Below are positions 2,951 through 17,649 of a stretch of 42,916 nt of DNA, one piece after another; position 1 is the stretch's first letter; every line of letters begins with the position of its first letter. Below the pieces are notes generated by a model. That model was given only the letters and a program-made list of their open reading frames with translations. It was not told the origin of the DNA and made no database searches. Both the position numbers and the translations under genes were made by a program. The DNA comes from Patescibacteria group bacterium (lineage in GTDB: Bacteria; Patescibacteriota; Minisyncoccia; Phycocordibacterales; Phycocordibacteraceae), in assembly GCA_024653825.1 (NCBI GenBank), contig JANLHF010000003.1:1-42916 (forward strand), written 5' to 3'.

Positions 2951-4741
2951 ATGGAAAATCCCGAGCGCGTGACCTACTTCGCGGCGACTGACGCACGCGG
3001 GAAACTTATTCCTTTCGGTATTAAATCGAAGGATCGCGATCGTCACATGTATGTCATCGGTAAGACCGGTATGGGTAAGTCGACCCTCCTCGAGAATATG
3101 GCGATCCAAGATATCAGAAATGGGGAAGGCATCGCCTTTCTCGACCCGCACGGCGCGACGGTTGATCGGCTCCTCGACTATATTCCCGAAGAGCGCGTCA
3201 AAGACGTCGTCTACTTCGCGCCGTTCGACCTCGAACACCCCATCGCCTTCAACGTGATGGAGGATGTCGGCTACGACAAGCGCCATTTGGTGGTCAGCGG
3301 GCTCATGGCGACCTTCAAGAAGATCTGGGAGGACGCGTGGAGCGCGCGTATGGAATACATCCTCACCAATACGCTCCTCGCGCTTCTTGAATATCCGGAT
3401 GCGACCCTGCTCGGCGTGAATCGTATGTACACCGATAAGGATTATCGGACGAAGGTGGTGGATAACGTGAAGGATCCGGTCGTGAAGGATTTCTGGACCA
3501 AGGAGTTCGCAAACTACGGCGATCGTTACACCCAGGAGGCAACGCCGGCCATTCAAAATAAGATCGGCCAATTCACCGGCAATCCGCTCATCCGTAATAT
3601 CATTGGACAGCCGAAATCCTCGTTCGACATCCGTACGATGATGGACCAGAAGAAGATTCTCATCATGAATCTCTCGAAAGGACTTGTGGGGGAGACCAAT
3701 ATGCGTCTCTTGGGCTCGATGCTCACGACGCGTCTCTTCCTCGGCGCGATGAGCCGCGCGAATCTCTCCGGGCCCGAACTCACGAAACTTCCGCACTTTT
3801 ATTTTTATGTAGATGAATTTCAGAACTTTGCGAACCAGACATTCGCCGAGATTCTCTCCGAATCGCGCAAATATAAACTGAACCTCATCATCACGAACCA
3901 ATACATCGAGCAGATGGAGGAGGAAGTGCGCGACGCGGTGTTCGGTAACGTGGGTACGACGGTGGCATTCCGCGTTGGACCCTTTGATGCCGAAGTGTTG
4001 GAGACAGTCTTTATGCCGAAGTTTTTGAAAGAGGACATCGTGGGTCTCGATAAACGGCAGGTGTATCTCACCCTGATGATAGACGGGGTTGGCTCTTCTC
4101 CTTTTTCTGCAGTTACCATCCCGCCGATAGAAGCACCACCAGTATCTCATCGACAAGAGGTCATCGACTCGTCGCGAGAACAATTCTCTACACAGCGCGC
4201 CGGCATCGAGACAGCCATCATGGAGGAGTTCGCGGTAAGTGCGGCGGCTCCCGTTCCGCTCGATGCGCGCATGAAAAAGAAACCACCGATGCGCTCAGCT
4301 TCTTCGTATACACCGACCTCAACTCATACCACTCCATCTCATCCTCCGACCCAACTTCGCCAAGGCTACGATGGGCACAGCAAGGCTACGGAGGGCACGG
4401 TGCGCTCACCAGAAATTCGTCCTGCTCCGCCGAGTAAGAGCGCTGAAGATCTAAAAGCGATACTGCGGAATATGACGGCAAAGACCGGCGCAGAAAGGGA
4501 ACAGAAACAATCGCATACTCAGCAGGAGTTGAAAGGTACGCTCGCTGATGTGTTGCAGCTCCGACGTCAGGAGTCGGGGCTCCGACCGGAAGCGTCGGAG
4601 AAGCCCGTGACGATTCAACCGCCACAACAAAAAGCCCCGACGTCAGAAGTCGGGGTCCCGACCGGAAGCGTCGGGAAAGAGAAAAAGCCTTTTGAAGTTC
4701 CTGAAGAAGAGCTTCGAGACGTCCTCAAAGGCAAACAATAA
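2951..4741 (+). CDS. VirD4/TraG/TrwB-like (HerA/FtsK superfamily) ATPase with low-complexity C-terminal tail
   Basis: Walker A GKTGMGKS, DPHG, Walker B FYVDEFQNF, SESRKYKLNLIITNQY; TGgTATACT 7 nt upstream. Confidence 0.85.
   Translation: MENPERVTYFAATDARGKLIPFGIKSKDRDRHMYVIGKTGMGKSTLLENMAIQDIRNGEGIAFLDPHGATVDRLLDYIPEERVKDVVYFAPFDLEHPIAFNVMEDVGYDKRHLVVSGLMATFKKIWEDAWSARMEYILTNTLLALLEYPDATLLGVNRMYTDKDYRTKVVDNVKDPVVKDFWTKEFANYGDRYTQEATPAIQNKIGQFTGNPLIRNIIGQPKSSFDIRTMMDQKKILIMNLSKGLVGETNMRLLGSMLTTRLFLGAMSRANLSGPELTKLPHFYFYVDEFQNFANQTFAEILSESRKYKLNLIITNQYIEQMEEEVRDAVFGNVGTTVAFRVGPFDAEVLETVFMPKFLKEDIVGLDKRQVYLTLMIDGVGSSPFSAVTIPPIEAPPVSHRQEVIDSSREQFSTQRAGIETAIMEEFAVSAAAPVPLDARMKKKPPMRSASSYTPTSTHTTPSHPPTQLRQGYDGHSKATEGTVRSPEIRPAPPSKSAEDLKAILRNMTAKTGAEREQKQSHTQQELKGTLADVLQLRRQESGLRPEASEKPVTIQPPQQKAPTSEVGVPTGSVGKEKKPFEVPEEELRDVLKGKQ
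4343..4398. repeat. Nested palindromic element with CAAGGCTACG(AT/GA)GGGCAC direct repeats inside the ATPase gene
   Basis: 18-bp imperfect repeats at 4361-4378 and 4381-4398; CCCA..TGGG inner stem; CCTCC(4343-47)/GGAGG(4390-94) outer stem. Confidence 0.65.
4559..4676. repeat. Two copies of a 42-bp double-hairpin element (4559-4600, 4635-4676) inside the ATPase gene
   Basis: Core 38-mers 4561-4598 and 4637-4674 match at 35/38; each unit is two abutting 21-nt hairpins CCGAC-N7-GTCGG. Confidence 0.85.
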
Positions 4742-4750
4742 TACTTTTCT

Positions 4751-6043
4751 ATGCGCATCGCCGTGTTGCTTACGCTGGTTGTTCTTTTCCCAACATTCGT
4801 GTATGCAGATAGTCCTCCGACTGTCGAGACCGTGATTTTACACGACACCATATATCCGTCTGCAACCGTCGAGTCCGGACTTGCAGCGACCACTTCCATC
4901 GACATTGTTTTTTCTGAGCAAGTAAAAGCATCAATAAAAATACTGTCTGCAGATGGTACGATAATCAGTTCACTTTATTCAAGCTCAAAAGTCACAAATC
5001 CGACACCGAAGATTTGGGATGGGACGGACGATACGGGAGCGTCGGTCGGTAATGGTGTCTACATTGTTCTCATTTCTGCTGTCTCTGTTTCGACGGGACT
5101 GTCGATGACCGATTCGTCTAAAACAATCACTGTTGCACTCCCGCCGAACGACTCAGATCCCGCAGGCATCTCTTCCGACACAACAGACACACCGCCACCC
5201 TCCTCCGGCGGCGGACCCGTGGAATATTTGCCAGTGCCGACACTCCGCATTGTCACCAGTGGCGATCGAACCATCTCTTCTGGCGCGGAGGTTGCCTTTA
5301 CCGCTGTTGTGTACGACGGAAACGGAAATAAGCGCAGTGACGCCGTCGTGACGTGGTCGTTTGGCGACGGAATGCAGAAGACGGGCGCAAGCGTTTTCCA
5401 TGCGTATTACAATTCGGGCGAGTATGTCGCGACCGTGCGTGCCACGACCTCTGACGGCGGTGGAGTACTTGGCGAAAGGGTCGTCACAGTCAAAGACGCA
5501 CGCATCAAAATCACATCCGTCTCTTCGCGCGGCATTGCGCTTACGAACAGCGACTCCCGCACACTAGACCTCTCGTTGTGGCGCCTTTCGATGGGCGGGC
5601 AGGAATTCAAGATTCCCGCGGATACAAAGATTCTCGCCGACCACACCATCCTTTTCCCTTCACAAATAATCGAGTTGCCGATTGCGAACTCGGCATCTCT
5701 CCTTTATCCGAGTGGAGAAACGGCTGCCGTATATCCGAGCGTTGCGGTCGCGCCAACGACAGTCGTGCAACCTACAGCGAACAAAATGAGTTATGAACAA
5801 GTACAGGCGGTTGAGCCACCTGTAACACATACCGTCGAACCGATTATACGCACGGAAAACATTCAAGCACATGAAGAAGCAGTAAGTGCCCCCACAGCGG
5901 CGATTGAAGTCGCGGCTGTGGGGGCGGCATCACTCGAATCGTCGGCGCCCGGCTCTTCTGTCGCGGAAATGTTCAAATCTCCGTGGGCGTTCGGCCTTCT
6001 CGGAGTCATTGTCGTAGCCAGCGGGGCGTTTATTCTTCTCTAA
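4751..6043 (+). CDS. Secreted, C-terminally anchored surface protein (FlgD-Ig-like + PKD + lamin-tail-like domains)
   Basis: Signal peptide; IWDGTDDTGASVGNGVYIVLI (FlgD_ig-like); TWSFGDG..HAYYNSGEYVATV (PKD); LTNSDSRTLDLSLWRL (LTD-like); S/T/P-rich linkers; C-terminal TM. Confidence 0.75.
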   Translation: MRIAVLLTLVVLFPTFVYADSPPTVETVILHDTIYPSATVESGLAATTSIDIVFSEQVKASIKILSADGTIISSLYSSSKVTNPTPKIWDGTDDTGASVGNGVYIVLISAVSVSTGLSMTDSSKTITVALPPNDSDPAGISSDTTDTPPPSSGGGPVEYLPVPTLRIVTSGDRTISSGAEVAFTAVVYDGNGNKRSDAVVTWSFGDGMQKTGASVFHAYYNSGEYVATVRATTSDGGGVLGERVVTVKDARIKITSVSSRGIALTNSDSRTLDLSLWRLSMGGQEFKIPADTKILADHTILFPSQIIELPIANSASLLYPSGETAAVYPSVAVAPTTVVQPTANKMSYEQVQAVEPPVTHTVEPIIRTENIQAHEEAVSAPTAAIEVAAVGAASLESSAPGSSVAEMFKSPWAFGLLGVIVVASGAFILL

Positions 6044-16074: not shown

Positions 16075-17604
16075 ATGGAACCCAAAGTACTTCTTGTGTA
16101 TCCGCCGAATCAACTGATGCCGGTGGAATTGCCCCGGCCAGACGGTTCGCTCGGGCCACTATATCTTGCAGGGGCTCTTGAACGGGCCGGGATTGAGGTA
16201 GATGTTCTCGATGCCTCTGTAGGCACGCCGGACGACAGTCTCGAAACGACCTTCAACAATCGTGTCCTGCAATCAAATGGACTGATCCGCATCGGTATGA
16301 CGGCAGAACGGATAAGCGAAGTCATTTCCAACGGCGGCTATAATGTCGTCGGGGTTAACTCCAACTTCACTCCGCAGACGAAAATGGCTCTTGAAGTTGC
16401 CCGTTTGGCCAAGGGCGTCTCAGAGGACATTCTGGTTGTGGCGGGTGGCGTCAATGCTCGTGCCCTGCCGGGGAGGTTTCTTGCCGGTGGTGTGGACGTC
16501 GTTTGTGCTACCGAAGGGGAGCGAATCATCGTTGAGCTTGCCCGAAGATTGGAAGAGGGGAGAAATCTCGAAGTTTCCGGAACAATCACCACAAAGAGGG
16601 GAATAGTCGTAAGACACCCACTCCGCGCCGGCGATACGGTGACCAATCTTGATGAACTACCTTTCCCTACATGGCAGAAACTCCCGTTCGAACAGTATGA
16701 CGGCATCGCATCGGCCGGACGGGATTCGCTCAAACAAAACGAACGGTCGGCTTCTCTCATGACCTCACGCGGATGTCCCTTCAGGTGCGCCTACTGCCAT
16801 ATCTCTATGGAAAAACAGAATGAAAAAGAGAGTGGCGGCATTGGAGCACTGAGGACCAAGTCTGTCAGTCGCGTGATGGAAGAAGTGAAATGCCTCAAGG
16901 CGCTGGGCGTCAAGAAGATCTACTTTGAGGACGACAGCTTGCTCGCGCACAAGTCCCGAGTGAAGGAGATTTTCACTAAGGTGACGGGTATGGGTATGAA
17001 GATTGCTGACGTCAACGGAGTCAATCTCACGCATTTCCTGAAAGGTGGACCGGGAGGGAAACCGATGATTGACGTGGAGTATCTCGAACTGCTTGCTTCA
17101 GCCGGATTTGATCAAATTGTCTTTCCGGTGGAATCGGCATCCCAACGCATTCTCAACAAGTATGCGACCGGGAAACTCAACCATGCCAAACTTGATGTTG
17201 TGGAGCTGGTAAAGTTGGCGGTGCGGATAGGAATCACCTGCCCCGTTAACATGATGATTGGCTTCCCCGATGAAACAGAGGAAGAAATTCTTTCATCGAT
17301 TGAGCTTGGTCGTCGGCTGGTTGATGCGGGCGCGCCTTACTGCTCGCTCTACGTCCCTATTCCATTCCCGGGAAGCCAGCTTCACGAGATTGCCTTGCAT
17401 GACGGATACCTTGCGTCGAATTTCGACACGGACGCCTTCAACTGGCGAAAACCAACCATGCGAGATACGACCGTCTCTCCGGAAAGGATTGAAGAACTAC
17501 AGCAATGGGGCTGGAGAGATATCAATCCGAAGGAGTACGTCCGTAAGAGACTCGAGATGGACATCGGCAGGCGGTGGAAGAGCGGCGAGCCGGAAGTTGC
17601 CTGA
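16075..17604 (+). CDS. Cobalamin-binding radical SAM enzyme (class B methylase-like)
   Basis: N-terminal B12-binding-type domain (SLGPLYLAGAL..VDVLDA, VAGGVNA); TSRGCPFRCAYC (CxxxCxxC); YFEDD, ESASQRIL, MIGFPDET, PFPGSQL. Confidence 0.9.
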   Translation: MEPKVLLVYPPNQLMPVELPRPDGSLGPLYLAGALERAGIEVDVLDASVGTPDDSLETTFNNRVLQSNGLIRIGMTAERISEVISNGGYNVVGVNSNFTPQTKMALEVARLAKGVSEDILVVAGGVNARALPGRFLAGGVDVVCATEGERIIVELARRLEEGRNLEVSGTITTKRGIVVRHPLRAGDTVTNLDELPFPTWQKLPFEQYDGIASAGRDSLKQNERSASLMTSRGCPFRCAYCHISMEKQNEKESGGIGALRTKSVSRVMEEVKCLKALGVKKIYFEDDSLLAHKSRVKEIFTKVTGMGMKIADVNGVNLTHFLKGGPGGKPMIDVEYLELLASAGFDQIVFPVESASQRILNKYATGKLNHAKLDVVELVKLAVRIGITCPVNMMIGFPDETEEEILSSIELGRRLVDAGAPYCSLYVPIPFPGSQLHEIALHDGYLASNFDTDAFNWRKPTMRDTTVSPERIEELQQWGWRDINPKEYVRKRLEMDIGRRWKSGEPEVA

Positions 17605-17618
17605 AATTGTCTGACATG

Positions 17619-17649
17619 GGGCCGACGCGTGCGTCGGCCTTTTCTTTTT
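17619..17649 (+). terminator. Intrinsic terminator
   Basis: GGCCGACG-CGTG-CGTCGGCC followed by TTTTTCTTTTT. Confidence 0.85.

Follow-up and report, generated by a model that had tools for sequence, protein, structure and literature searches.

A dispersed, apparently undescribed family of 42-nt double-hairpin repeats in Parcubacteria, with two copies in the linker of a VirD4/TraG-like ATPase

Within a 42,916-nt stretch of DNA from a Patescibacteria group bacterium (hereafter the window), the C-terminal linker of an ATPase gene contains two copies of a 42-nt unit, each made of two abutting 21-nt hairpins. The copies belong to a dispersed family of such repeats in Parcubacteria, apparently an undescribed one: a literature search returned no description of the element sequence or of palindromic repeats of this type in Parcubacteria, Patescibacteria or CPR. 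We read the unit, with a probability of roughly 60%, as a REP/RPE-like palindromic insertion element of Parcubacteria whose 42-nt, nearly stop-free design permits its persistence in protein linkers.

Table 1. Coordinates of the features discussed, in positions of the window
Feature	Position	Strand	Description	Basis
VirD4/TraG-like ATPase gene	2951..4741	+	type IV secretion coupling-protein-like, 596 aa	Pfam TrwB_AAD_bind, TraG-D_C
Hypervariable C-terminal linker	4554..4690	+	~aa 535-579, contains both copies	homolog alignment
Element copy 1	4559..4600	+	hairpin 1 4559-4579, hairpin 2 4580-4600	sequence, covariance model
Element copy 2	4635..4676	+	hairpin 1 4635-4655, hairpin 2 4656-4676	sequence, covariance model
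Intrinsic terminator hairpin	17619-17638 (core 17622-17637)		just after ORF 16075..17604; GGCCGACGCGTGCGTCGGCC then T-rich run	

The two copies and their host gene

Each hairpin has a 7-bp stem and a 7-nt loop. Copy 1 reads CTCCGAC-GTCAGGA-GTCGGGG / CTCCGAC-CGGAAGC-GTCGGAG (5' arm, loop and 3' arm of hairpin 1 / hairpin 2), with one U.G pair in hairpin 1 (CT..GG) that the initial annotation had left unmentioned, and copy 2 reads CCCCGAC-GTCAGAA-GTCGGGG / TCCCGAC-CGGAAGC-GTCGGGA; the loop of hairpin 2 is C[GGAA]G+C in both. These letters are as the initial annotation had described them, four 21-nt hairpins in two abutting pairs. A repeat search of the window returned two 47-nt copies with 87% identity and a start-to-start distance of 76 nt. 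Since 76 is not a multiple of 3, the copies are read in two frames of the same gene, as had also been noted: copy 1 in frame F0 as LRRQESGLRPEASE (aa 537-550) and copy 2 in frame F2, the commonest frame of the family, as PTSEVGVPTGSVG (aa 563-575). Hairpin 2 differs between the copies at both outer pairs and on both sides (CT/AG in copy 1 vs TC/GA in copy 2). The double compensatory change claimed from this difference is present in the letters, but it represents variation between family sub-types and not a duplication that was later compensated.

The family covariance model (R1) scored copy 1 at 67.7 bits on the plus strand and 41.8 bits on the minus strand and copy 2 at 70.7 and 45.4 bits, and these were the only full copies in the window. 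Predicted RNA folds of the units range from -23 to -26 kcal/mol (z -2.7 to -3.4); the minimum-energy fold of copy 2 is the two hairpins (-25.7 kcal/mol as RNA, z = -3.4) and that of copy 1 alone is one long hairpin. The one-hairpin fold, pairing arm 1 with arm 4 and arm 2 with arm 3, was rejected, as covariation for it is absent. Rfam gave 0 matches over the whole window at gathering thresholds, and over positions 4450-4780, ranked by E-value, the best match reached 19-20 bits vs cut-offs of 43-50. An identity of the copies as intrinsic terminators was likewise rejected, as no T-run follows either copy on the plus strand and both are inside the ORF; the terminator-like match within them is on the minus strand only (4655-4635).

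The pattern CCGAC-N3-12-GTCGG occurs five times in the window vs 0.52 expected from shuffles, and 0/100 shuffles reach five. Four of the matches are the hairpins of copies 1 and 2, and the fifth is the core of the terminator hairpin in Table 1, which the initial annotation had named as a recurrence of the same stem. The core sequence is indeed shared, but this hairpin scores 11 bits (E ~0.1) against the family model, compared with 68-71 bits for the window copies, and with its single stem and 6-nt loop it was set aside as an ordinary intrinsic terminator.

Judged from sequence, the ATPase gene is of Kaiserbacteria-like Parcubacteria origin; its homologs, 70-83% identical, are labelled Kaiserbacteria, Paceibacterota or Parcubacteria. 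The linker holding the copies is bordered by a conserved SLKGxLxxVL block before it and a conserved C-terminal KKPFEVxExxLRxVLKG helix after it. In an alignment of 46 ATPase homologs the invariant columns end at L531 and restart at P580, and the tails of the homologs differ in length and content. An AlphaFold model of the ATPase, poor overall (mean pLDDT 55.8), has no secondary structure at residues 542-581 (pLDDT 33-37). A second kind of small hairpin repeat is present in the ATPase tail at 4341-4398.

Comparison of the tail among orthologs, as proposed in the initial annotation, found an intact copy, as peptide, in 2 of 120 ATPase homologs; the nearest homolog (P0002, 83% identical) has no copy, and P0010 (75%) has copy 2. 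Orthologous copies occupy the site of copy 2 in L058, L078 and L106, and L078 also carries a decayed ortholog of copy 1 in the same place. The spacer between the window copies has no homology to their flanks. On sequence comparison, copies 1 and 2 are separate old insertions, both older than the split from the L078 lineage. The site and orientation of the element in the tail differ between the window and L047. We somewhat favour regarding the tail as a permissive landing site, which would have received at least two element insertions in addition to the second hairpin repeat; the elements probably add just spacer residues to the ATPase.

The family and its two-hairpin fold

Copies were collected by exact-pattern scans of a genome collection and of metagenomes. 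The scan of the genome collection returned 57 loci, 51 of them with the family signature, against fewer than 0.1 chance matches expected at 35-50% GC, and the metagenome scan returned at least 120 loci, with Hainich groundwater and Rifle-type series contributing many of the matches. Pooled, the matches listed comprise 152 non-redundant copies with 131 distinct 42-mers at 91-113 distinct sites. Almost all are from Parcubacteria: the named carriers are Kaiser-, Zambryski-, Nomura-, Yanofsky-, Brenner- and Adlerbacteria, Paceibacterota and Minisyncoccia, and a few carrier records are labelled just 'bacterium' or 'Saccharibacteria'. No copy was found in the viral contigs of IMG/VR, which gives no indication that phages carry the element. 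Strict-pattern matches number at most four per species genome (two in the 43 kb of the window), with a density of roughly one element per 40-130 kb.

The consensus, rCC-CCGAC-GTCAGAA-GTCGG-GG / NN-CCGAC-C[GNRA]GC-GTCGG-N'N', describes two abutting 7-bp hairpins and is nearly constant, loops included, over carrier genomes of 34-60% GC. Covariation was assessed on the five base pairs that the search pattern left free. Among the matches listed, 94-97% of sequences are Watson-Crick at these pairs, each of which takes 3-5 pair types. Both sides of a pair had changed in 200 cells, compared with 38 +/- 10 for shuffles and 9-58 for slid controls. The family is real, and it is the two-hairpin fold that is conserved; a one-off duplication, with no further copies and no covariation, had been named in advance as the outcome that would speak against an element. 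The outer pairs fall into sub-types (CT/AG, TC/GA, AG/CT, CG/CG, CC/GG and others). Two positions outside the search pattern, the G that opens loop 1 and the C that ends loop 2, are invariant in 52/52 copies of the first scan. Hairpin 2 has a C-G-closed GNRA tetraloop with a bulged C; among the matches listed, the GNRA loop occurs in ~90 and the C-G closing pair in 105 of 131 sequences, and the bulged C is retained. Mismatches on the canonical strand are G.U in 8 cases and A.C in 11, and G.U being no commoner than A.C, there is no RNA-specific wobble signal and the comparison is uninformative. Pairing of the flanks into a closing helix (a three-way junction) was not above shuffles.

Among the matches listed, 17 clusters of orthologous sites (flanks 70-83% identical) show compensatory stem switches in situ, including a change of the tetraloop-closing pair from C-G to U-A. 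Such switches resemble the outcome of purifying selection acting on structure locus by locus, for clusters that were ascertained for an intact core. All 152 copies listed have their hairpins head-to-tail without a spacer, an arrangement demanded by the search patterns; looser searches found almost always doublets or a triplet, and few singles. A weak 5' flank consensus, n-C-A-G/A, is kept in copies outside frame F2 and in non-coding copies. Two candidate identities were discarded: mimicry of a tRNA anticodon arm by loop 1, as the middle of that loop varies freely, and CsrA-type GGA loops, as GGA is missing from most copies.

Sites, reading frames and turnover

About 87% of the copies are intragenic, 20 of the 152 not being spanned by an open frame of 100 codons or more (among the matches listed). 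The genic copies sit in linkers or terminal extensions, and Pfam domains were matched on both sides of copies in TopA, DnaE, DnaX, PolA, IF-2, SecA, NusG, UvrC, PilB/T2SSE and TrmD. In PolA, IF-2 and NusG the copy is outside or between Pfam-matched stretches; in TopA, PilB, DnaE, UvrC and TrmD it is within a matched stretch that exceeds the length of its profile, consistent with insertion into a loop. Four copies are associated with rRNA, all in rRNA sense, three in 16S leaders and one in a 23S-5S spacer, and two of the three leader copies are directly 3' of a boxA-like motif, GTTCGTTGA(A/C)AAT. One apparent insertion into a tRNA gene (L090) was discarded, as the copy lies in a truncated 5' piece of a tRNA that precedes tRNA-Arg.

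The consensus has a stop codon in frame R1 only, and the other five of six frames are stop-free. Counted per independent site among the matches listed, the frames are F2 29, R2 11, R0 6, F0 5, F1 4 and R1 1, and the two frames that give PTxxVGxPTxxVG account for 40 of 56 independent genic sites (p = 1e-8); because the unit is palindromic, the same motif is encoded on both strands. Frames other than the PTSEVGAPTESVG one give Arg/Lys-rich peptides, and PRRQKSGLRPKASE-type peptides of another frame are found at conserved sites in window copy 1, in UvrC of four orthologs and in TrmD. Codon third positions left unfixed by the first search are invariant (ACG 52/52, AGC 52/52), even at 34% GC. The claim that constraint acts on nucleic-acid structure and not on protein is supported by the covariation and by the fact that the element is read in more than one frame, is found on both strands and also occurs outside coding sequence in rRNA spacers, but the bias in frames shows that choice of reading frame is not indifferent.

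Within genes, sense copies outnumber antisense copies by 55:19, or 38:18 by independent sites (p = 0.01, among the matches listed), which puts the antisense share of genic copies at roughly a quarter to a third. Orientation was not associated with the replication strand as assessed by GC skew (60:41, p = 0.07; F copies 22:20), and the sense-strand bias is thus not explained by GC skew.

The family occupies ~100 unrelated sites, with presence or absence among orthologs, decay in some lineages (L078 and L182) and copies that can be nested. Among 120 TopA homologs none has an intact copy and one a decayed copy, and in L183 a different, 58-nt hairpin element is at the same place in the TopA linker. 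DnaX carries copies at differing sites and orientations in L049 and L014, L024 has a loop insertion, and L046 has a nested or triple copy whose inner unit is again preceded by ACAG. Among the retrieved loci we found no transposase, no target-site duplication and no filled/empty pair between near-identical strains; the small number of loci inspected for ORFs or called genes showed neither a transposase nor a RAYT gene. Tracing through the exact neighbouring small protein returned no strain variants on record, and a search of public sequencing runs listed none that contains the window.

Origin of the element and related systems

As an insertion element, the unit would reach, or would once have reached, new sites by being copied as the single-stranded hairpin substrate of a trans-acting enzyme; this putative enzyme would, by analogy, work like those of REP/RAYT or IS200/IS605-type systems. 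A length of 14 codons and five stop-free frames would mean that insertion never breaks the host frame. Selection would then retain only insertions in tolerant, disordered segments, and the preferred frame would be the one that yields the small, neutral peptide PTSEVGAPTESVG. The stems may be kept paired because propagation needs pairing, because template switching within the hairpin repairs the arms during replication, or both. Several observations count against an insertion element, among them the negative result for a transposase, target-site duplication or filled/empty pair at the retrieved loci. Copy number, on strict-pattern matches, appears low for a REP-like element, and near-identity across candidate phyla of 34-60% GC is out of the ordinary for selfish repeats, most of which are restricted to one species or genus. 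The in-situ compensation at the 17 clusters and the sense-strand bias, in genes and in 4/4 rRNA-spacer copies, also count against it, and the GNRA tetraloop together with the position 3' of a boxA-like motif in 16S leaders hints at an RNA role.

Several of these features speak for a host-functional RNA module acting in cis. Its transcribed double hairpin would be bound by an RNA-binding protein or an RNase specific to the lineage, or would serve in stability or pausing, and it would be placed in replication and translation mRNAs and in the spacers of pre-rRNA, with the coding frame as a secondary accommodation. Sequence constancy over 34-60% GC, the conserved GNRA loop, closing pair and bulged C, and the sense orientation all agree with such a module. 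We nevertheless consider it unlikely: occupation is sporadic per site, as in the ATPase and TopA orthologs, decayed copies are tolerated, one gene is hit at varied positions and orientations, antisense copies make up roughly a quarter to a third of those in genes, and both the wobble comparison and Rfam are silent. Slightly less likely still is a broader alternative in which the double hairpin is not selfish at all but a conserved Parcubacteria cis signal, a structured RNA or a single-stranded DNA tag for a lineage-specific factor, located within coding regions and rRNA spacers that belong to the machinery of replication, transcription and translation (TopA, DnaE, DnaX, PolA, IF-2, NusG, SecA, ribosomal proteins, the 16S leader by boxA), with pairing under selection and codons forced into a compatible frame. 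The expectation of the initial annotation, a REP/BIME-like element, did not hold in its strict form. A bona fide REP/BIME (REPIN), with hairpins recognised and moved by a RAYT (REP-associated tyrosine transposase), would account for short GC-rich paired hairpins that are dispersed and covary in structure, and for the 5' flank that persists outside F2 and recurs inside the nested copy of L046, but we regard it as doubtful given that GTAG precedes 5 of 131 copies (among the matches listed), CGTC occurs solely at the stem-loop junction (GACGTC), the hairpins are head-to-tail with zero spacer, most copies are inside ORFs and copy number, on strict-pattern matches, appears low.

The remaining readings are far less probable. 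A double-stranded DNA signal (an operator-like palindromic protein-binding site, a DNA-uptake sequence or a partition site) would fit 5-N7-5 palindromes placed 21 bp, or two helical turns, apart, and few copies kept across lineages, as with parS, which is present in few copies per genome and conserved across lineages. It is made very improbable by outer pairs that covary freely, differing even within one genome and gene, which indicates hairpin pairing and not base-specific recognition by a dimer; the loops, moreover, are asymmetric and conserved, and two copies in 43 kb are far under the density of uptake sequences. Marginally more remote is a protein-level repeat, in which (PTxxVGx)2 is selected as a peptide motif or linker module and the palindrome is a by-product. 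It has the frame bias and the double-stranded coding of the motif on its side, but is contradicted by the non-coding and other-frame copies, and the invariant third positions and covarying pairs that alter encoded residues likewise oppose it. A one-off local duplication or chance palindrome without wider meaning, to which only the presence of just two full copies in one gene of the window lends itself, has a negligible probability and is refuted by ~150 further copies (among the matches listed) and their covariation; the spacer and the age of both window copies are also against it.

Among known systems, the insertion element most resembles Rickettsia palindromic elements (RPE) and intragenic REPs, short palindromes in frame in functional housekeeping genes, in-frame RPEs being described as 'many within replication and repair genes' (PMC3733652). 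It shares with RPEs the occurrence in ORFs that still code functional proteins, in non-coding and RNA-gene contexts, and in loops, linkers and termini, and the possibility that one gene is hit twice (PMC3733652). It differs in its Parcubacteria hosts, its 42-nt unit, in which two hairpins stand head-to-tail and a CGTC tag at the end is missing, its near-identity across several candidate phyla and its GNRA tetraloop with a bulged C; from RPE-1 to RPE-8 it is set apart by the missing CGTC end and by host lineage. REPs are defined by a tetranucleotide, GTAG or CGTC, that is conserved at one terminus of the palindrome, and head-to-tail dimers were negligible in a survey of them (PMC3733652). With REP/BIME and REPIN-RAYT systems the element has in common short, GC-rich, imperfect palindromes with stem-loops (two 7-bp stems per unit), paired and dispersed, structure-preserving sub-type variation and, by analogy, a plausible single-stranded hairpin mobilisation, whereas its hairpins are direct and not inverted, without spacer or tag, mostly intragenic and not extragenic, and apparently far sparser than the hundreds of REPs per genome. 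REP/BIME sequences occur in tens to thousands of copies per genome, mainly extragenic and typically downstream of genes.

PARCEL repeats similarly combine coding sequence with dyad symmetry, a similar peptide from both strands and a patchy distribution suggesting mobility, but they are long tandem arrays of ~25-residue amphipathic units in proteins of unknown function, often membrane-targeted, whereas the element is a single 14-codon unit in unrelated housekeeping proteins, with at most 2-3 near each other and unrelated spacers between them. Uptake sequences (USS/DUS) are also nucleotide-level signals tolerated in genes, mainly in certain frames and in poorly constrained protein segments; those of Pasteurellaceae and Neisseria are 9-12 nt, are not hairpins alone and occur at ~1 per kb, unlike the 42-nt, structured and rare element (2 copies in 42.9 kb).

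The element accounts for part of the hypervariable, low-complexity linkers in Parcubacteria housekeeping proteins, and its covariance model offers a marker for tracing lineages and insertions. As a source of artefacts, a 42-nt repeat may give chimeric assembly joins and places PTSEVGAPTESVG and PRRQKSGLRPKASE peptides in protein databases. Covariation, the GNRA loop and cross-phylum conservation raise the question of whether the structure is kept by propagation, by template-switch repair or by a host function. The genomes of Parcubacteria are very small and densely packed with genes, and they are usually regarded as repeat-poor. If our reading is true, Parcubacteria own a class of palindromic elements inside essential genes, the counterpart in an unrelated lineage with reduced genomes of what in Rickettsia is called 'selfish DNA in protein-coding genes'.

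A pair of hairpin elements in the tail of a coupling-protein-like ATPase

A repeat search of the window returned two 47-nt copies (identity 87%, spacing 76 nt), and the four 21-nt hairpins in two abutting pairs described in the initial annotation were confirmed. Because 76 is not divisible by three, the two copies are read in different frames of the host ORF, as had been noted, and are translated as LRRQESGLRPEASE and PTSEVGVPTGSVG. The window has 5 occurrences of CCGAC-N3-12-GTCGG, where 0.52 would be expected. When the window was searched with a covariance model of the 42-nt double-hairpin family built from the collected copies (R1), only copy 2 (70.7 bits on the plus strand, 45 on the minus strand) and copy 1 (67.7 and 42 bits) were recovered. 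The stem had also been said to recur in a downstream terminator; that hairpin does have the CCGAC/GTCGG core in common but scored only 11 bits with the family model (17616-17643), and it resembles an ordinary intrinsic terminator.

Coordinates of the window features
Feature	Position	Strand	Description
Copy 1	4559-4600	+	two abutting 21-nt hairpins; stems 7 bp, loops 7 nt
Copy 2	4635-4676	+	two abutting 21-nt hairpins; stems 7 bp, loops 7 nt
Host ORF	2951..4741	+	type IV secretion coupling-protein-like ATPase; Pfam TrwB_AAD_bind, TraG-D_C
Terminator-like hairpin	17619-17638		GGCCGACGCGTGCGTCGGCC then T-rich run, directly 3' of ORF 16075..17604

The nearest relatives of the ATPase (70-83% identical) were from Kaiserbacteria, Paceibacterota and Parcubacteria, which belong to the Parcubacteria group within Patescibacteria. 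In a 46-homolog alignment, conservation ended at L531 and restarted at P580, placing both copies inside a hypervariable linker; residues 542-581 had no predicted secondary structure in an AlphaFold model of low quality (mean pLDDT 55.8). In the window, the two copies are relics or residents of a tolerant ATPase tail.

A second small hairpin repeat, at 4341-4398, lies in the same tail. It consists of GACCCAACTTCGCCAAGGCTACGATGGGCAC with a partial tandem duplicate of 20 nt (period 20) behind it and is likewise translated in two frames (QGYDGHS and KATEGT), so that elements of this type appear to accumulate in the linker. Eight retrieved loci (L069, L169, L073, L015, L082, L119, L083 and L002) had hairpins of a related type, CCCTRC..CG-CCAAGGCT(A/T)-CG..GYAGGG, among which compensatory changes were seen, and 'RPPLRATEG' was found at the matching position of the ATPase homologs P0004 and P0037. 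A terminator-like match of the scan on the minus strand (4655-4635) fell on copy 2 hairpin 1 in reverse complement, followed by CTTTTTGTTG; this match is probably incidental, because the A-run is missing at the orthologous site in locus L058.

Size, spread and structure of the family

One genome per species was scanned with the pattern CCGAC-N7-GTCGGGG-NN-CCGAC-N7-GTCGG, for which chance alone would give about 4 matches at 70% GC and <0.1 at 35-50% GC. The pattern matched 57 loci, with a maximum of four matches per genome; six were in high-GC non-CPR genomes and are chance matches or tandem arrays, and the other 51 had a common loop signature. Clade-named carriers among these 51 were Kaiser-, Zambryski-, Nomura-, Yanofsky-, Brenner- and Adlerbacteria, Paceibacterota and Minisyncoccia, the rest being bins labelled 'Saccharibacteria', 'Patescibacteria group' or only 'bacterium', and the GC of carrier loci was 0.34-0.60. 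Although the pattern leaves both positions free, loop 1 began with G and loop 2 ended with C in 52/52 species-scan copies each. A metagenome scan with a looser pattern yielded at least 120 loci, and pooling gave 152 non-redundant copies with 131 distinct 42-mers, so the pair is not the one-off local duplication that the initial annotation had named as the alternative. The hairpins were nearly always doublets, with an occasional triplet and rare singles. Searches of IMG/VR viral contigs found no copy, those of Rfam no matching family, and in the papers searched neither the element sequence nor a description of such a repeat in Parcubacteria was found.

Two further groups of hairpins were noted. 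A Thermoanaerobaculia contig, from an unrelated phylum, contained a tandem head-to-tail array of at least 12 CTCCGACGCRGTGTGTCGGGG hairpins with period 21 and the same CCGAC/GTCGG core (L008, 5500-5790). A sub-family with loop 1 GATAAAT or GATGAAT and hairpin-2 outer pairs TG/CA (5' arm/3' arm) was found in L066, L068, L138, L150, L151, L157 (two copies), L159 and L174, mostly at sites without a convincing ORF in sense frames, and some of its copies were flanked by GGTGAGTGGTGA-like or GACGCAAC motifs.

Covariation was assessed at the five pairs that are free of the search pattern, namely the two outer pairs of each stem and the pair closing the tetraloop in loop 2. In 94-97% of the 131 sequences these pairs were Watson-Crick, and CG, UA, AU and GC all occurred. 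Changes on both sides of a pair were counted in 200 cells, compared with 38 +/- 10 in column shuffles (0/500 reached 200) and 9-58 in a control in which the partner was slid; the structure-preserving covariation for which a covariance model had been proposed is therefore present. Loop 2 has the form C-[GNRA]-G plus a bulged C, with tetraloops GAAA (54), GGAA (16) and GCAA (10) and closing pairs C-G (105), U-A (14) and U-G (4). Pairing between the flanks was absent, and the element is therefore exactly 42 nt. Mismatches on the canonical strand were equally rare as G.U (8) and A.C (11), so that these data do not separate RNA from DNA pairing. A single long hairpin, the minimum-energy fold of window copy 1 alone, was rejected because it had no covariation support.

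Host sites, reading frames and turnover

An open frame of 100 codons or more ran across all but 20 of the 152 copies. Pfam-confirmed hosts included TrmD, PilB/T2SSE, DnaE, TopA, SecA, UvrC, DnaX, PolA, IF-2 and NusG. The element lay outside or between the matched Pfam stretches in PolA, IF-2 and NusG, and within a Pfam stretch longer than its profile in TopA, PilB, DnaE, UvrC and TrmD, as expected for loop insertion. Further hosts identified by eye were ribosomal proteins L19, S16 and S5, TrxB, Def and a PKD-domain protein homologous to window ORF 4751..6043.

The consensus is stop-free in five of its six reading frames (F0-F2 on the canonical strand, R0-R2 on the opposite strand), frame R1 containing TGA. 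F2 encodes PTSEVGAPTESVG and its mirror frame R2 encodes PTLSVGAPTSDVG; F0, F1 and R0 are Arg/Lys-rich. When each independent site was counted once, frames were used in the order F2 (29), R2 (11), R0 (6), F0 (5), F1 (4) and R1 (1), so that F2 and R2 accounted for 40/56 sites (p = 1e-8 versus one third), and sense exceeded antisense by 38:18 (p = 0.01). Orientation was not associated with GC skew. From the F2/R2 excess we infer that copies are filtered by protein-level tolerance, and the frame bias reflects selection on the spacer peptide that they encode. The earlier view that constraint acts on nucleic acid and not on protein must be amended in this respect; its first half stands, since other frames are used (window copy 1, the UvrC copy, F0 in 4/4 orthologs, and the TrmD copy) and third codon positions in the element are invariant, AT-rich genomes included. 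The element is nucleotide-defined, the protein filter notwithstanding.

Three copies were found in 16S rRNA leaders (L009, L046 and L053), two of them a few bases 3' of a boxA-like GTTCGTTGA(A/C)AAT (L009, ~3330-3360; L046, ~670-700), and a fourth rRNA-associated copy lay in the 23S-5S spacer of L053 (7390-7438); all four were in the rRNA sense. L012 had a near-identical copy, with no rRNA or boxA detected in the stretch examined. In L090 (1186-1285, minus strand) a copy directly upstream of an intact tRNA-Arg(CCT) was inside a truncated tRNA-like 5' half, GCCCCTGTAGCT|element|CAACGGATAGAGCG...

The 152 copies formed 113 site clusters when both flanks had to match and 91 when either sufficed, and 17 clusters contained orthologous copies from different genomes with flanks 70-83% identical. 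Orthologs had locus-specific signatures in common (e.g., loop GGCAGAC with AG/CT in L038, L137 and L147), and differences between paralogs of one genome show that the family is not undergoing homogenisation. Within clusters, compensated switches were observed at the outer pairs (CC/GG to CT/AG to TC/GA; TT/AA to CT/AG) and at the tetraloop-closing pair (C-G to U-A); these are the strongest evidence for an in-situ constraint or repair process, in loci ascertained for an intact core.

Ortholog samples chosen by protein are free of this ascertainment bias. In the comparison of ATPase tails, which the initial annotation had suggested, copy 2 orthologs were present in L078, L106 and L058, the latter two having copy 2 only. 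Among the best 120 homologs the peptide was found only in the window protein and P0010, and the nearest homolog, P0002, had a short linker and no peptide. L078 retained a decayed relic, CCCCGACGTCCGCAAGGGCCGGAGCCCCGACCGATAGCGCCGGAA, in frame F0 at the place of copy 1, and the window copies are therefore old, separate insertions. The ATPase tail of L047 had two copies in reversed order (F2, then F0-like) 59 nt apart, and DnaX was occupied at two different positions in opposite orientations (L049 and L014). Among the best 120 homologs of the TopA C-terminal region none had an intact copy, and one (P0121/L182) had a decayed copy (GTCGG to GCCGA and GCCGG). In L046 (5637-5717) a 40-nt double hairpin, with the 5' flank usual for the family (ACAG) before it, lay in the hairpin-1 loop of another copy, giving a nested or triple arrangement, and in L024 (1455-1543) the hairpin-2 loop had a ~39-nt insertion with its own stem. 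The same TopA linker in L183 (~1030-1090; P0133) had a different 58-nt perfect hairpin with a 21-bp stem, CCCGAAACAAGGTTCGACCTT-(14 nt)-AAGGTCGAACCTTGTTTCGGG, and this linker seems to have been colonised by several hairpin repeat families.

The L183 hairpin encodes PETRFDLKSESSRSNLVSG, with a similar peptide in P0181, and 'RSDL'/'KSDF'-type peptides were found in P0131, P0150 and P0172. In L018 (1-200), a low-coverage contig, the frame upstream of the element resembled the L19 C-terminus (as in L019) and the downstream frame the TopA C-terminal repeat (as in L025), a pattern that a chimeric assembly at the 42-nt repeat might explain, as might genuine recombination of two copies.

Nature of the element

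Published REPs have terminal GTAG or CGTC, occur mainly as head-to-head dimers and mainly downstream of genes, and those of the GTAG type associate with RAYT genes (PMC3733652). The Parcubacteria element has none of these three features of sequence, arrangement and location, so the proposed REP/BIME-like label applies to its insertion behaviour but not to REP membership. It works similarly to intragenic REPs and Rickettsia RPEs yet belongs to neither family, and it resembles PARCELs in encoding a similar peptide on both strands but differs from their long tandem arrays.

By analogy with REP/RAYT and IS200/IS605, propagation may proceed by a single-strand hairpin mechanism; no moving enzyme, target duplication or filled/empty strain pair was seen among the loci examined. 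Pairing might be kept because propagation requires it, or through correction by template switching in quasi-palindromes, which is known to happen during replication. It might also serve a host function, as the excess of sense-strand copies, the GNRA loop, the copies in rRNA leaders and sequence conservation across phyla would suggest; we consider this unlikely. The many unrelated sites, the presence, absence and decay among orthologs, the repeated insertions into the same permissive linkers, the nested copies and the coexisting hairpin families together make a REP/RPE-type palindromic insertion element the more likely reading, rather than a gene-specific regulatory structure. A length of 14 codons with almost no stops accounts for its survival in essential genes of very compact genomes.
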